Shown here piece after piece: positions 5,286-53,600 of a stretch of 64,000 bases of DNA. The stretch lies in NCBI GenBank assembly GCA_001775095.1, contig MFCA01000025.1, positions 22,994-86,993 on the forward strand, given 5' to 3'. The translations under genes were made by a program, and so were the position numbers. Below the pieces are notes generated by a model. The model searched no databases, had not been told where the DNA came from, and was given only the letters and a program-made list of their open reading frames with translations. Position 1 is the stretch's first letter. Each line of letters opens with the position of its first letter. Origin of the DNA: Candidatus Curtissbacteria bacterium RIFOXYA1_FULL_41_14. Lineage in GTDB: Bacteria; Patescibacteriota; Microgenomatia; Curtissbacterales; GWA2-41-24.

Positions 5286-5360
5286 GGCGCTATCGTCTAG
5301 TGGTCCAGGACACATGGTTCTCATCCATGAAACCGGGGTTCGACTCCCCGTAGCGCTACC
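5286..5360 (+). tRNA. tRNA-Glu (anticodon CUC)
   Basis: Hand-folded cloverleaf: acceptor GGCGCTA/TAGCGCT with G1-U72, U8, D-stem GTCT/GGAC, anticodon stem CATGG/CCATG, loop TTCTCAT (anticodon CTC), T-arm CGGGG-TTCGACT-CCCCG, discriminator A. The 3' CC is encoded. Confidence 0.85.
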
Positions 5361-30150: not shown

Positions 30151-30224
30151 TGGCTGCCGGACTAGGATTCGGACCTAGATAAGCAGATCCAGAATCTGCT
30201 GTCCTACCATTAGACGATCCGGCA
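30151..30224 (-). tRNA. tRNA-Gln (anticodon CUG)
   Basis: Hand-folded on the minus strand: acceptor TGCCGGA/TCCGGCA with U1-A72, discriminator G73, CCA encoded, D-stem GTCT/GGAC, anticodon arm GCAGA-TTCTGGA-TCTGC (CTG), T-arm CTAGG-TCCGAAT-CCTAG. The T-loop has C at position 55, which is unusual. Confidence 0.7.
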
Positions 30225-49233: not shown

Positions 49234-50113
49234 GCCACTGGTGGTTGGTAAAGGCCCACTCTATAAGCTGCTTTGATTCTCCAAAACGGTCATATGAGCC
49301 TAAGACTACAGTGGTAATTGTATGGTCATTGCGAGTCGTTTTGGTAATTAAAACTTCTAGAGAGCCTTCTGTTTGGCCTGTTTTGACGCCTTCAACCCCT
49401 TCTATTTCGCCAAGTAACTCGTTAATATTTTCTAAATAATAAATTTTGAAACCATTAACATCATTCAAAACAGCGTTCTTTGTGGCGACTATTTTGGATA
49501 TTAAGGGACTAGCAACCGCAACTTTGGCGAGCTTCGCAAGATCACGGGCAGACGAATATTGAAGTGGATCGTCGAATCCGGCCGGATTAAGAAAGTGGCT
49601 ATTTTCCATTTTCAATTCCTTGGCCTTTTGGTTCATTGACTCCACAAAGCGATAGGAGGAGTCCGAACAAGAATCAGCCAACACAAAAGCCGCATCGTTA
49701 CCGGAGGCAACTAATAAGCCATAGAGTAAATCTTTGACCGTAACTAAATCACCCTGGGTAAGTCCCATCTGGGTTCCTTCTCCAACTACCTTTCCAACCC
49801 TTATTACTTGCTCTGGATCACATTTCTCAAGCGCAACAATTGCTGTCATCAATTTGGTAGTTGATGCGGGTAAATGGCGAGTATCGGGATTTTTCGTAAA
49901 AAGCTCAATTGCTGTTTTACTGTCGATTACAATTGCTGAGCTTGCGGAAATCTCCGGCGGTTGATGGGGGTTTTCAACTGCGACCGGGTAAGGATAAAGT
50001 TCAGGTACCTCGTTTATAATCGGCAATTTTTGAGGCTGACTTTTGGCAAAGGCAATAAATACAGTAAAAGATAGAAGTATTAAAACTGCGCAAAGATAAC
50101 GGGTAAGATTCAC
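49220..50113 (-). CDS. D-alanyl-D-alanine carboxypeptidase (S11, PBP5-like)
   Basis: SxxK (ASTTK), SGN (ASGND) and KTG (KTGQT) motifs are present. Confidence 0.8.
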   Translation of the reverse strand: MNLTRYLCAVLILLSFTVFIAFAKSQPQKLPIINEVPELYPYPVAVENPHQPPEISASSAIVIDSKTAIELFTKNPDTRHLPASTTKLMTAIVALEKCDPEQVIRVGKVVGEGTQMGLTQGDLVTVKDLLYGLLVASGNDAAFVLADSCSDSSYRFVESMNQKAKELKMENSHFLNPAGFDDPLQYSSARDLAKLAKVAVASPLISKIVATKNAVLNDVNGFKIYYLENINELLGEIEGVEGVKTGQTEGSLEVLITKTTRNDHTITTVVLGSYDRFGESKQLIEWAFTNHQWLNPQ

Positions 50114-51471
50114 AACTGTCTAATGCCAAGTTCTTTCAGGGTTTCTTTGTCGACATCCGAAGGCGCATCCATAACCGCAGTCCGGCCGGTTGAAGTCATC
50201 GGAAAAGGAATGACCTCGCGTATATCTTTCTCTCCGGTTAAAAGCATTAACCAGCGATCAATGCCGCAAGCAATTCCGCCGTGAGGAGGAGCGCCATAGG
50301 CAAAAGCCTCAAGCATATGGCCAAACTTTTCCTCAATATCTTTTCTCTTGTGGCCTAAAACTTCAAAAACTTTGGTCAGAATTTGCCCATCATTACTTCT
50401 GATGCTCCCGCCTCCCATCTCAACACCGTTAGCGACCAGATCGTATTGGCAGGTTTTAATCCCTTCAATTTGGCCCCTTAAAAAGGCCTCTTTATCATCC
50501 GGGGCAAGATCGGAAAAGGGATTGTGGGAATAAGTCCATTTACTGTTTGCATCTTTTACAAAAAACGGGAAATCAACCACCCAGGCAAAGGCAAAAGTGT
50601 TTGGCTTTTTCTCGCCTTCTGCACGCAGATCGAATTTATCTGAACCGAATTTTTTCATTGCCTCCTCATAGGTAAAGACTGGAAAGGGTTTTTTAAAAAT
50701 CTTAGCACCCATTTTTTCAAAAACTTGAGTCGCCAGGCCTTCTGTCATGGCCATCACATCTTCTCTTTTGACAAAGCTCATTTCCAGATCAATCTGGGTA
50801 TGTTCAAAAGCCCGGTCTGAACGCAGGTCCTCATCTCTAAGGCATCTGGCAATTTGGAAATACTTCTCAAAACCGGCAATCATCAAAAGTTGTTTATATT
50901 GCTGGGGAGATTGGGGGAGGGCATAAAATTTGCCTTTCTGAAAACGGGAAGGGACGATGAAGTCTCTAGAGCCTTCCGGTGTTGATTTGGTTAAAATTGG
51001 AGTTTCAATTTCGACAAAGTCGTTTTCAAAAAGATACTGACGGGCAATTTCGACAAGTTTTGACCGCAGCTTAATATTTTTCTGCAATCTTTTGCGCCTC
51101 AGATCGAGATAACGGTACTTAAGCCTTAAATCTTCCTCTATATCATATCCATCCGTATCAATTGGGAATGGTGGGGTTTTTGACTCGTTTAAAACGGTAA
51201 ATTTTGTTGCTTTAACTTCAACTTCGCCGGTCTCAATTTTAGGGTTGACGAGATTTTTTGGTCGTTTGTTTACTTCTCCTTCAATCTCGACCACAAATTC
51301 GGGCCTTAAACTTTTGGCTTCTTGGCCGCAGACAACTTGGATAATCCCCGATCGGTCCCGAAGATCAAGAAAAATTAGTTTTCCATGATCGCGACGGGTA
51401 TCGACCCAGCCCTGAAGTTTTACTTTCTGACCGATTTTTTTAATACTTTCAACGGCTAATGTCCTGTCCAT
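50110..51471 (-). CDS. aspS: Aspartyl-tRNA synthetase, archaeal/eukaryotic type (no GAD insertion)
   Basis: N-terminal OB fold, FYALPQSPQQYKQLLM and FRDEDLRSDR class II motifs. Its length of 453 aa lacks the bacterial insertion domain. Confidence 0.85.
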   Translation of the reverse strand: MDRTLAVESIKKIGQKVKLQGWVDTRRDHGKLIFLDLRDRSGIIQVVCGQEAKSLRPEFVVEIEGEVNKRPKNLVNPKIETGEVEVKATKFTVLNESKTPPFPIDTDGYDIEEDLRLKYRYLDLRRKRLQKNIKLRSKLVEIARQYLFENDFVEIETPILTKSTPEGSRDFIVPSRFQKGKFYALPQSPQQYKQLLMIAGFEKYFQIARCLRDEDLRSDRAFEHTQIDLEMSFVKREDVMAMTEGLATQVFEKMGAKIFKKPFPVFTYEEAMKKFGSDKFDLRAEGEKKPNTFAFAWVVDFPFFVKDANSKWTYSHNPFSDLAPDDKEAFLRGQIEGIKTCQYDLVANGVEMGGGSIRSNDGQILTKVFEVLGHKRKDIEEKFGHMLEAFAYGAPPHGGIACGIDRWLMLLTGEKDIREVIPFPMTSTGRTAVMDAPSDVDKETLKELGIRQL

Positions 51472-51529
51472 TGACTTTTGGAAAATCTATCTATTTTATT
51501 TTCTTCAGTCAATTCTAAACTAAACAAGG

Positions 51530-51559
51530 TTGACAATCAAAGATTATGTTGAGTAATAT
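51530..51559 (+). promoter_or_regulatory. Near-consensus sigma70 promoter TTGACA - 18 nt - TAATAT
   Basis: ttgaca at 51530-51535 and taatat at 51554-51559, in the aspS/recJ intergenic region. Confidence 0.5.
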
Positions 51560-51566
51560 TTTTAAG

Positions 51567-51701
51567 TATGGTTTTTAACTTAAACAGAACTCCCCTTACT
51601 TTAGGTCTCTTGCTTTGCAGGAGCTACGGGGAGGTTATGGTTTAGGTTACAAAAACCCAACCGAATCGGAAAAGATACCTCCCCAAAAGGGAGGGTTTTT
51701 T
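51567..51701 (+). ncRNA. Candidate small RNA or cis-regulatory leader (about 135 nt) between the consensus promoter and an intrinsic terminator
   Basis: Bounded by the promoter above and the hairpin cctccc-caaaa-gggagg plus TTTTTT. It contains a long-range pairing ggggaggt...acctcccc. I recognise no match to a known RNA family. Confidence 0.35.
51678..51701 (+). terminator. Intrinsic terminator (cctccc caaaa gggagg tttttt)
   Basis: A 6-bp GC stem with a 5-nt loop and a T6 tract. Confidence 0.55.
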
Positions 51702-51718
51702 ATGGGTGAAAGGTTAAA

Positions 51719-51886
51719 ATGCCGGAAAGAGAAAATCAGGATAATAATCAGTTTGATCAAGATAAATCCCCGGATACTAACAAAGATCAACGAGTTGGCC
51801 CTCAGAACTATGACATTCTCGAGGAGGTTGGAAAGATTGTTGATGAAAAGTCAAGACAAGATTTCATTGATCAAATGAATGCCTAA
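51719..51886 (+). CDS. Small acidic ORF (55 aa) downstream of the leader
   Basis: MPERENQDNNQFDQDKSPDTNKDQRVGPQNYDILEEVGKIVDEKSRQDFIDQMNA. It competes with the overlapping track ORF 51615-51878 in another frame. Neither frame is supported by homology. Confidence 0.25.
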   Translation: MPERENQDNNQFDQDKSPDTNKDQRVGPQNYDILEEVGKIVDEKSRQDFIDQMNA

Positions 51887-51919
51887 TTTTAGATTTATTG
51901 TCGAGAACTTCTCGACTCT

Positions 51920-51944
51920 CCCGCCCTTTTTGAAAAAAGGCGGG
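51920..51944. terminator. Bidirectional terminator hairpin cccgccctttttgaaaaaaggcggg downstream of recJ
   Basis: A near-perfect palindrome with a GC-clamped stem and A/T tracts on both sides, 25 nt past the recJ stop. Confidence 0.55.
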
Positions 51945-51968
51945 ATCGCTCGAAGAATAAAAAGGGGG

Positions 51969-53600
51969 TCAGGATTTGATTTTTAAATCCCTTAGCTTGA
52001 GCTGGATTGCGTTGTTGCCGTTGTAACGGTCTTCGGCTAAAGTATAAACCGCATCTACTGAATATCCCGGCCTGATTTGGGATCTAAATTCACCCATGTT
52101 AAATCCGATTGCCGAAAAACCGTCAATTTGAAGTTTTAAATGATCGTTCTTTTGACCGACACACCTAACATCTTCAACTAACATTCCTTTTGTTAAAAAT
52201 AGAGGTTCACGATTACCAACACCAAAAGGCTCAAACTCGTCGATAATTTCCAAGGTATTGCGGCTGATATCATCGAGTTGCAACTCACATTCGATGGAAA
52301 GTTTTCGTGCAAGCGATTCCACCGATAGCTTTCCTTTGGCATAGTAGTTTATCGAATCTGAAAAACTTTGGATATGGCAAGTTTCGATGGTAAATCCGGC
52401 TGCCATTGGGTGTCCGCCAACATTAAGTACCAGATTACTTGACTTACTAATCGCTTCAACAATATTAAAACCGGCAACAGAACGGGCGGACCCTTTGGAA
52501 AAAGTCTCTCCTTGCGATATGACAATCATTGGCTTGTTATGGATTTCCATTAGCCGAGCGGCGACTAACCCGATAATTCCCTCGTGCCAATTTGGGTGTG
52601 ATATGACTCCAATTGGACTCTCTCCATTAACCATTACTTTTGCTTCCTGAATAATTTTGGAGGTTAAATCCTGTCTTTTGGTATTGGTTTTACAAAGCAA
52701 TCTAGCAAGACTAGCAGCTTGATCCTGATTTTTGGCACAAATGAGCCTTAAAGCATCAATTGCGTGTTCGATTCTGCCCATGGCGTTAATCCGCGGAGCT
52801 ATAATATGGCCTATTTCAAAAGTTCCAATTTGCCCCGAAATTGAAGTTTCTCTGATTAAAGCCTGTAGCCCTGGCCTTGAAGTTTTTGAAATCTTTTCCA
52901 GCCCAAGTTTAACAATCGCCCGATTGGCACCAAGAAGGGGCACCAAATCCGCAACAGTAGCTATGCTTGCCAGCTCCAGTTTCTCGATCAGGTTTTCTCT
53001 ATATGAAGGTTTTAATTTTTCTGAAATTTCATAAGCTAAACGCCAGGCAACTCCGGCCCCGCACAAATCAGTCGAGTGAACAAGGGCAACAGCTTTAGGG
53101 AGTTTTTTGGGTAAAATGTGGTGATCAGTGACGATTACATCGATTCCTAGATCTTTCGCGTGATCGACTTGATCGACAGCTGCTACGCCATGGTCTACCG
53201 TGATAATTAACTTTACTTTTTTCTTGGCAAGTTCTGAAATTGCTTCTTTGGAAAGACCGTATCCTTCCTTTATTCTATGAGGTACATAGGGTAAGGTATC
53301 AGCGCCAAGATCATGGAGAGTTTCCCATAAAATTGCTGTACCGCAAATGCCGTCAGCGTCATAATCGGAATAAATAATTACCTTTTCCTTACTGCTGATG
53401 GCTTTTGAAATCCGTTTCAACGCTTTCTCAACATCAGTCAGTTTGACCTCAAGAATCTGTTCGAACTTGGGATTCAAAAATTCTTCAAGTTTCTTTTTAG
53501 AAGTCAGTCCCCTATTTTTTGCAAGTAGGGAGGGGAGCCAATTTTTACCTTTATTGCTAACAGAAGGTGAAATTACGTTCCAGATGTGTGTAACCACCAA
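51969..53600 (-). CDS. recJ: Single-stranded-DNA-specific exonuclease RecJ
   Basis: DHH motifs (YSDYDADG, VIVTDHH) and a DHHA1 domain with a C-terminal OB fold. Confidence 0.85.
   Translation of the reverse strand: MVVTHIWNVISPSVSNKGKNWLPSLLAKNRGLTSKKKLEEFLNPKFEQILEVKLTDVEKALKRISKAISSKEKVIIYSDYDADGICGTAILWETLHDLGADTLPYVPHRIKEGYGLSKEAISELAKKKVKLIITVDHGVAAVDQVDHAKDLGIDVIVTDHHILPKKLPKAVALVHSTDLCGAGVAWRLAYEISEKLKPSYRENLIEKLELASIATVADLVPLLGANRAIVKLGLEKISKTSRPGLQALIRETSISGQIGTFEIGHIIAPRINAMGRIEHAIDALRLICAKNQDQAASLARLLCKTNTKRQDLTSKIIQEAKVMVNGESPIGVISHPNWHEGIIGLVAARLMEIHNKPMIVISQGETFSKGSARSVAGFNIVEAISKSSNLVLNVGGHPMAAGFTIETCHIQSFSDSINYYAKGKLSVESLARKLSIECELQLDDISRNTLEIIDEFEPFGVGNREPLFLTKGMLVEDVRCVGQKNDHLKLQIDGFSAIGFNMGEFRSQIRPGYSVDAVYTLAEDRYNGNNAIQLKLRDLKIKS

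Follow-up and report, generated by a model that had tools for sequence, protein, structure and literature searches.

Why should a strong promoter be followed at close range by an intrinsic terminator in an intergenic region whose two flanking genes are both read from the other strand? The question is raised by a 64,000-nt stretch of contig MFCA01000025.1 from “Ca. Curtissbacteria bacterium RIFOXYA1_FULL_41_14” (hereafter the window), in which a compact transcription unit lies within the 497 nt that separate aspS (50110-51471) from recJ (51969-53600), both encoded on the minus strand. The unit lies on the strand opposite to both genes and is divergent from aspS. A preliminary description, made from the sequence alone, stated that no protein-coding gene lies between the promoter and the terminator and suggested either a small RNA (sRNA) or a riboswitch or attenuator. 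However, the interval does contain an open reading frame (ORF) of 25 codons at 51568-51645, and this ORF is conserved in every relative that carries the unit. Judged from sequence comparisons, the unit is a real, conserved and unannotated cis-regulatory element, which we consider most probably to be a ribosome-mediated (leader-peptide) transcription attenuator. It combines a short ORF near the presumed transcription start, a terminator placed before a gene without its own promoter, and an antiterminator that excludes the terminator and that a ribosome could occlude. The attenuator half of the earlier suggestion is thus retained, since the mutually exclusive antiterminator is conserved, but not in its ligand-sensing, riboswitch form.

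Six distinct versions of the unit were found, in the window, L093/L094, L109, L015/L110, L007 and L010. All are located at one and the same site, the recJ-aspS interval, and are encoded on the strand opposite to these genes. We refer to the window, L093, L109 and L015 as clade A and to L007 and L010 as clade B. The unit in L015, also from Curtissbacteria, was found by nhmmer and a covariance model (E 1.7e-15), with weaker matches for L007 and L010. A full HMMER search with the 55-amino acid (aa) protein encoded downstream identified a homolog of 60% identity (P0122), and its contigs L093 and L094 carry the unit, while L109 was added by a specific-pattern scan of metagenome contigs that matched three loci, one of them new. 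A covariance model (R1) run on 86 loci and the window recovered L015 and L007 only, with a weak match to L010 (E 2.9), and it revealed no paralogous copies in the window. The AspRS proteins of the lineages that share the arrangement are only 56-65% identical. It is extremely improbable that motifs resembling a promoter and a terminator merely coincided in an AT-rich intergenic region, even though each class of motif is common in shuffled sequence. A 4-kb region contains 16 promoter-like sites (7.8 in shuffles), of which this promoter is one of the best two, there are three terminator-like sites where 4.3 are expected from shuffles, and neither motif class is significant by itself. The unit nevertheless stands above chance because it is conserved in six lineages with such divergent AspRS proteins, and because its leader is far more conserved than neighboring synonymous sites. 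The parts of the unit, with RNA segments numbered 1 to 4 and segments 3 and 4 pairing in the terminator, are as follows.

51530-51559, plus strand: sigma-70-type promoter TTGACA-18-TAATAT, matching 10 of 12 consensus positions.
51568-51645, plus strand: leader ORF of 25 codons and a UAG stop (MVFNLNRTPLTLGLLLCRSYGEVMV), with its ATG 8 nt past the -10 box.
51590-51595, plus strand: segment 1 (CUCCCC), partner of segment 2 in a predicted anti-antiterminator helix, or of segment 4 in the read-through fold.
51607-51623, plus strand: hairpin Pa (CUCUUGC-UUU-GCAGGAG) within the leader ORF, 96% paired in clade A.
51628-51635, plus strand: segment 2 (GGGGAGGU), Shine-Dalgarno-like, leader codons 21-23, putative 5′ strand of the antiterminator.
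51639-51657, plus strand: small hairpin Pc (GGUUU...AAACC), with the leader UAG in its 5′ arm and loop.
51677-51684, plus strand: segment 3 (ACCUCCCC), anti-Shine-Dalgarno-like, putative 3′ strand of the antiterminator, overlapping the 5′ arm of the terminator.
51678-51701, plus strand: intrinsic terminator with CCUCCC (51678-83), a CAAAA loop, GGGAGG (51689-94), one G and U6 (51696-51701).
51702-51704, plus strand: AUG directly after the U-run (UUUUUUAUGG in all four clade A members).
51719-51886, plus strand: acidic ORF of 55 aa, the putative regulated gene, called by gene callers in many assemblies.

The promoter and the terminator had both been described correctly before. Transcription would start at about 51564-51566, and the leader mRNA is probably leaderless, because the ATG lies only 8 nt past the -10 box. 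The same is implied for L093 and L109, where this distance, as in the window, is 7-8 nt. Across the six recJ-aspS members, the leader ORF has 24-27 codons, its ATG lies 7-19 nt past the -10 box, and it is not preceded by a Shine-Dalgarno sequence. Segment 2 is purine-rich and is formed by the last leader codons, and the leader stop codon is always located within or just past it (in the window, 8 nt beyond its 3′ end). Segment 3 follows roughly 26-42 nt downstream and overlaps the 5′ arm of the terminator, which is kept in all relatives, in clade B as CCCCGC/GCGGGG, with a U-run of 6-7 residues. The downstream start codon lies 7-17 nt past the U-run in the window, L015, L007, L010 and an analogous unit in L037, described below. 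At 17 nt in the window, this leaves no room for a promoter of the 55-aa ORF. Since the downstream ORFs lack a promoter of their own, their expression would depend on read-through. In L093, an insertion of about 115 nt that carries an inverted repeat (ATTCCCGC...GCGGGAAT) separates the terminator from the small ORF (L093:1350-1459), and in the same lineage a U-to-C change in segment 3 weakens the terminator and the antiterminator alike.

The argument rests in part on the pairing of segments 2 and 3. A long-range stem formed by GGGGAGGU and ACCUCCCC had been pointed out in the preliminary description. The complementarity exists, but the stem is absent from the minimum-energy fold and belongs instead to an alternative, antiterminator fold, which competes with the terminator because ACCUCCCC contains the terminator 5′ arm. 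While clade A uses GGGGAGGU:ACCUCCCC, the corresponding pair in clade B is GGGGUGAUU:AAUCACCCC or GGGGUGA:UCACCCC, and a 2:3 pairing that overlaps the terminator is also found as GGGAGGUA:UACCUCCC within the recJ-aspS family. The pairing thus persists despite complete replacement of the sequence between the clades, and again in L037.

To place this in perspective, we made an unbiased scan of both strands of about 815 kb of Patescibacteria loci for strict terminators (a stem of at least 5 bp with at least four G-C pairs, followed by a U-run) with a perfect upstream complement of at least 7 nt. Only 53 strict terminators were found, so that canonical terminators seem to be rare in these genomes and one inside a 5′ leader stands out. 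Eight of the 53 had an upstream complement, where we estimate about one by chance; seven of these eight belong to the family described here, and the eighth is in L037. This unit (L037:1692-1830, minus strand) is unrelated in sequence and divergent from gltX, and it contains the promoter TTGACA-17-TAAAAT and a 21-codon ORF (MLVKTLMSICLFIFGRRPLTF). Its 10-bp antiterminator (CGGCCCCUAA:UUAGGGGCCG) overlaps the terminator, GGGCCGG/CCGGCCC-U5, which is followed at a distance of 10 nt by the ATG of a gene for GTP cyclohydrolase II. Taken together, the seven units all keep a promoter with TTGACA (7/7), an ORF of 21-27 codons, a segment at the 3′ end of that ORF that is complementary to the terminator 5′ arm, and, further downstream, an ORF that has no space for its own promoter.

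Within clade A, the helices are about 92-93% paired, compared to at most 72% for slid controls. In the segment 1 helix, 87.5% of the cells are paired. Its G-U wobbles are compatible with the plus strand only; the wobble pairs and the U-run together fix the strand of the element as plus. Hairpin Pa has one compensatory pair (G-C to U-G in L109), and a 3-nt insertion in L093 falls in its loop. For hairpin Pc the count is only 87.5% paired, with its arms out of register in the MAFFT alignment; inspected by eye, both of its sides are changed in L015 (GGCUU...AAGCC).

The leader ORF provides the second line of evidence. Summed over the six sequences, the two alternative frames contain 12 and 9 stops and the leader frame contains none. 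For a sequence of the same length and composition, the probability that a frame is open by chance is 0.11-0.29, and for four independent lineages it is about 0.002. The indels within the ORF are in frame, appearing as 3-nt gaps in MAFFT, an aligner that takes no account of codons. The encoded peptide, by contrast, is not under purifying selection, since substitutions are equally distributed over the three codon positions. The leaders of the window and L093 differ by nine changes, none of which is at a third position, giving six non-synonymous and no synonymous codon changes. The exception is an L-(T/S)-L-x-L-x-L core, which is loosely kept, with synonymous changes between distant members. A frame that is kept while its sequence is free is the pattern that a regulatory leader ORF predicts, and it argues against a functional micropeptide. 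Between the window and L093, identity in the leader is 82%, while the synonymous sites of the adjacent 55-aa ORF are saturated (proportion of synonymous differences, pS, 0.78), which indicates that the RNA is under strong constraint.

These data also bear on whether the leader ORF is itself the gene, encoding a small hydrophobic protein (a type I toxin or a membrane micropeptide) and ending in a terminator of its own, the 2:3 pairing being a structural feature of its mRNA. The peptides do share a hydrophobic run followed by K/R, about 17 residues long in L015 and L109, and the unit is patchily distributed in a variable spot, as would suit such a gene. However, the window, L007 and L010 have a run of only 6-9 residues, which is too short to span a membrane, there is neither purifying selection on the peptide nor an excess of synonymous change, no antisense partner or long structured 5′ untranslated region is evident, and the downstream genes rely on read-through. 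We therefore judge a small protein gene very unlikely.

The composition of the leader suggests what a leader-peptide attenuator might respond to. The clade A leaders are rich in leucine, with 6-11 Leu in 25-27 residues compared to a background of 10%, and those of clade B are rich in isoleucine. Stalling at rare codons was considered and rejected, as the leader codon usage is ordinary (mean relative synonymous codon usage 1.18, compared to 1.21 in the 55-aa ORF); any amino-acid specificity would thus come from composition. In amino-acid operons, the regulatory codons correspond to what the operon produces; no such correspondence was found here, and the downstream genes are not biosynthetic. 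This excludes the amino-acid-operon subclass alone and leaves the general mechanism untouched.

Folding supports a switch of this kind. The transcribed segment folds better than shuffled sequences (-49.2 kcal/mol, z = -3.65 in the window; z = -6.15 in L007). We folded the RNA up to the terminator 3′ arm under constraints, with the ribosome represented by a mask of 28 nt. In the naked RNA, the terminator fold is favored by 5.3-6.7 kcal/mol in the window, L093 and L109 and by 0.3-2.7 kcal/mol in L015 and clade B, while the L037 RNA prefers the antiterminator by about 10 kcal/mol. In every member, a masking ribosome with its A site at the stop or within the last 6-10 sense codons hides segment 2 and leaves the terminator as the sole option. 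When the mask is placed on earlier codons (about 1-11 in the window), it hides segment 1 together with the 5′ end, and the antiterminator is favored by about 2 kcal/mol, a preference that reaches up to 9 kcal/mol in L010 and about 10 in L037.

In the attenuator model that follows from these folds, the strong promoter would yield an mRNA that starts at, or a few nucleotides from, the AUG of the 25-codon leader. Its four segments could form two alternative sets of pairings, 1:2 with 3:4, giving the terminator and a stop, or 2:3 with 1:4, giving the antiterminator and read-through into the 55-aa ORF. A ribosome moving in step with the RNA polymerase would reach the end of the leader and cover segment 2, so that the terminator forms and transcription ends at about 51701. 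If no ribosome is loaded, the naked clade A RNA is predicted to adopt the same 1:2 and 3:4 pairings, again leading to termination. Only a ribosome that lags or stalls within approximately the first 11 codons would cover segment 1 and the 5′ end, leaving segment 2 to pair with segment 3 and allowing read-through. The unit would then report slow translation of the Leu-rich leader and respond by expressing the small downstream gene; scarcity of charged tRNA-Leu or tRNA-Ile, or a general translation stress, could be the signal.

The terminator and antiterminator architecture is also common to riboswitches, and the attenuator might instead sense a ligand, a protein or a tRNA directly, as in a riboswitch, a T-box-like element or a protein-binding leader, the ORF being fortuitous. 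The 1:2 helix with its internal loop, together with Pa, could be a small aptamer, and the unit adjoins a gene for an aminoacyl-tRNA synthetase. Rfam, whose families include the Leu, Trp, His and Thr leaders, T-box, riboswitches, 6S and SRP, gave no match at the gathering score for the element in the window or for six homologous loci, in line with the earlier failure to match it to a known RNA family by eye. With E values up to 10, the window gave chance matches only (51621-51992, 9.6-19.3 bits, compared to gathering scores of 40-88). No unpaired positions are conserved between clade A, clade B and L037. The segment 1-Pa loop varies in a synonymous-like manner (CUU/CUA, ACU/ACA, UUA/CUU) with L-T-L kept, and transcription of the unit proceeds away from aspS, T-box features are lacking, and the frame is kept open. 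The absence of Rfam hits and of unpaired nucleotides conserved across clades, the conserved ORF and the position of its stop codon at the antiterminator strand all speak against ligand sensing, and we hold direct sensing to be quite unlikely. A 5′ leader of aspS or a T-box on the minus strand was rejected as well, since the wobbles and the U-run fit the plus strand only, there was no T-box hit, and a predicted aspS promoter lies between the element and aspS. At the gathering score, the only Rfam matches in the entire 64-kb window are two tRNA genes (5286-5358, plus strand; 30154-30224, minus strand).

The conserved product might also be the terminated RNA of about 135 nt, acting in trans as an sRNA or as an attenuator-derived RNA such as rnTrpL, with the downstream ORFs as incidental passengers. 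This would explain why the leader is conserved and its downstream genes are not, and the naked RNA is well structured, as the z-scores above show. Segment 3 resembles the 3′ end of 16S rRNA and so could pair with Shine-Dalgarno regions. Attenuator RNAs with functions in trans are known (PMC6614838). On the other hand, a pure sRNA needs neither a reading frame kept open in six lineages nor a second strand that competes with its own terminator; moreover, the downstream ORFs have no promoter of their own, one of them is under purifying selection, and no target could be predicted. A trans-acting RNA as the main product therefore seems unlikely to us.

The gene that the attenuator would control in the window is the 55-aa ORF. 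Two overlapping ORFs beyond the terminator had been reported, the acidic 55-aa one being considered the more protein-like. They are a 58-aa frame from 51702 and the 55-aa frame at 51719-51886, and the preference for the latter is supported here. Relative to P0122, the proportion of non-synonymous differences (pN) in the 55-aa ORF is 0.235, giving a pN/pS of about 0.3 with the pS stated above, and the ORF is under purifying selection. The overlapping frame is not conserved, having 58, 14, 10 and 4 codons in the members of clade A (14 in L093). Its AUG is preceded, 7 nt upstream, by the GGGAGG of the terminator 3′ arm, a possible Shine-Dalgarno sequence, and it may be speculated that the hairpin also hides this ribosome-binding site in read-through transcripts. 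The AlphaFold model of the 55-aa protein (pLDDT 68) has a disordered acidic N-terminal half and one C-terminal helix (28-54), a single helix being too simple to be informative in a fold search. The protein belongs to no Pfam, PADLOC or PHROG family and has only two relatives among 1.8 billion representatives. The identical sequence is present in many public assemblies, including ones from anaerobic digesters. The downstream genes in the other units encode 87, 121, 205+114 and 66+57 aa, likewise belong to no Pfam, PADLOC or PHROG family, and are unrelated or only marginally similar.

Several observations weigh against a leader-peptide attenuator. The clades have neither a regulatory codon nor a tandem run in common, and the succession of hydrophobic and then basic residues in the peptides could partly be a by-product of the pyrimidine-rich and purine-rich arms of the hairpins. 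Covariation within clade A is weak, with one compensatory pair and a score that is reached by 115-121 of 500 shuffles, and helices 2:3 and 3:4 are invariant within this clade, for which reason the support for the pairing rests on the comparison between clades. In clade A, the competing folds are predicted to differ little in energy, by about 2 kcal/mol. We infer the transcription start and the translation of a leader ORF that lacks a Shine-Dalgarno sequence from the DNA, and the direction of the response from the modeled folds. In contrast to classical biosynthetic attenuators, the unit precedes orphan genes for which no alignment between lineages is possible. Finally, relatives that are closer by AspRS (72-84% identity) lack the unit or contain a remnant only: recJ adjoins aspS, or relA/spoT or other small ORFs intervene, and L091 has just the promoter and a remnant. 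The argument for the attenuator accordingly rests on the complementarity between clades, the terminator scan and the conservation of the frame.

The absence from close relatives suggests that the unit, although old, is dispensable and sits in a variable slot. The same slot between recJ and aspS holds relA/spoT in L087, L089, L113 and L114, unrelated small ORFs on the opposite strand in L090, L112 and L114, and nothing in L088, where the gap is 104 nt. L112 (2867-3000, minus strand) and L114 (2910-3000, minus strand) have a promoter and, after it, a short leader that lacks a leader ORF and includes a weak terminator-like hairpin (CUCCCU-AAAA-AGGGAU-U6 and AUCCC-AUUGAA-GGGAU-U6, respectively), preceding a conserved basic ORF of 89-97 aa (MGAKERQ...); this may represent the unit in decayed or simplified form. 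A link to phages was sought and rejected: the generic terminator/antiterminator pattern gave 14 hits in viral contigs, all unrelated, and the pattern is too noisy because these are mostly one repeated terminator sequence.

Two further features flank the unit.

51540-51512, minus strand: predicted divergent aspS promoter TTGATT-17-TAGAAT, its -35 box abutting that of the leader promoter.
51900-51916 and 51919-51945, strand unassigned: two adjacent hairpins between the convergent 55-aa ORF and recJ.

A block beside TTGACA (AATTCTAAACTAA) is kept in L091, L023, L060 and L109, even where the leader is absent, which fits back-to-back divergent promoters. The second hairpin had been taken for a bidirectional terminator at 51920-51944. 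The hairpin is real, but the terminator scan did not call it, neither strand shows a 3′ U-run, and the relatives lack it. Even without U-runs, the two hairpins could end either transcript. The gene after recJ encodes a CCA-adding enzyme. The AspRS of the window is archaeal-type and has 453 aa, and its closest relatives are from the Patescibacteria, namely Microgenomates-type lineages, WWE3 and Curtissbacteria. Many close homologs, of about 610 aa (P0031, P0041, P0045 and others), have a PF04073 domain (YbaK/aminoacyl-tRNA editing) inserted between the anticodon-binding and catalytic domains, which the enzyme in the window lacks. The close strain variants L001-L006 and L092 were set aside as uninformative about conservation, since they are 100% identical to the window over the intergenic region; in six long contigs, this region differs by no more than one base. 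L092 is identical to the window over approximately 51008-52125 and only 77-94% identical over 49908-51007, with the breakpoint inside aspS, and is either a recombinant strain or a chimeric assembly.

A full-text literature search found no paper on leader-peptide attenuation in Patescibacteria, and, to our knowledge, little has been published on gene regulation in candidate-phyla-radiation bacteria. What is new here is most likely the family, its probable leaderless start and its orphan downstream genes, while the attenuation mechanism itself is textbook knowledge; the gain lies in annotation and phylogenetic breadth rather than in a new principle. The unit nevertheless offers a concrete, testable case of translation-coupled transcription control in these bacteria, probably on a leaderless mRNA, and it points to a real gene of 55 aa and to a 25-codon ORF that had not been annotated. 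Because the host is present in many public assemblies, metatranscriptomes of anaerobic-digester-type samples could bear on the model. As a doubtful extension, the Patescibacteria might possess a family of leaderless translation-speed sensors that set a Shine-Dalgarno-like strand at the end of a mini-ORF against an anti-Shine-Dalgarno-like terminator strand. The recJ-aspS switch would then control a rapidly evolving slot whose orphan small proteins are made only when translation falters, and the abundant terminated RNA or the peptide would perhaps also act in trans.

The classical attenuators of E. coli, trpL, leuL, ilvL/ivbL, pheL and hisL, have a short ORF near the promoter and alternate between 1:2 plus 3:4 and 2:3 pairings. 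A ribosome at their stop codon covers segment 2, superattenuation occurs without translation, and leuL and ilvL are Leu-rich. The unit resembles them in its promoter-near short ORF, four-segment switch, predicted termination without translation and, in clade A, Leu-rich leader. However, it shows no sequence or covariance-model similarity to them, has no Shine-Dalgarno sequence on the leader ORF, is probably leaderless, lacks a family-wide tandem regulatory codon, and precedes orphan small proteins (GTP cyclohydrolase II in L037) rather than a cognate biosynthetic operon. The host, moreover, belongs to the Patescibacteria, which are usually portrayed as poor in amino-acid biosynthesis.

A DUF1127 small-protein gene in Sinorhizobium meliloti is controlled by attenuation that depends on an upstream ORF, proposed to track how available ribosomes are and how efficient translation is, with reciprocal expression (PMC12218461). 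The unit is similar in that translation of an upstream ORF would control a very small protein gene by attenuation, but the organism and sequence differ, and its critical strand lies at the 3′ end of the ORF in a canonical 2:3/3:4 switch. The antibiotic-responsive attenuators of bmrB-bmrCD in B. subtilis (PMC4191407) and of the mef/mel leader (PMC4335068) control resistance transporters. As predicted for the unit, there is no specific amino-acid logic and slowed translation swaps the terminator for the antiterminator, but nothing links the genes downstream of the unit to antibiotics. Leaderless polycysteine short ORFs in mycobacteria are the first cistron and act as ribosome-pausing sensors for downstream genes (bioRxiv 10.1101/834739). 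They share with the unit a leaderless short first ORF, predicted in our case, that serves as a sensor, while the output of the unit would be an intrinsic terminator and its leader has no Cys run. In S. meliloti, the liberated attenuator RNA rnTrpL and the leader peptide peTrpL can have functions of their own (PMC6614838, PMC7298713); a similar function in trans would account for a leader that is better conserved than the gene it precedes, but we found no evidence for it in the unit. The closest parallels in function are attenuators that read the general status of translation, such as the DUF1127 upstream ORF of S. meliloti and bmrB-bmrCD, with the mycobacterial leaderless ORFs also close.

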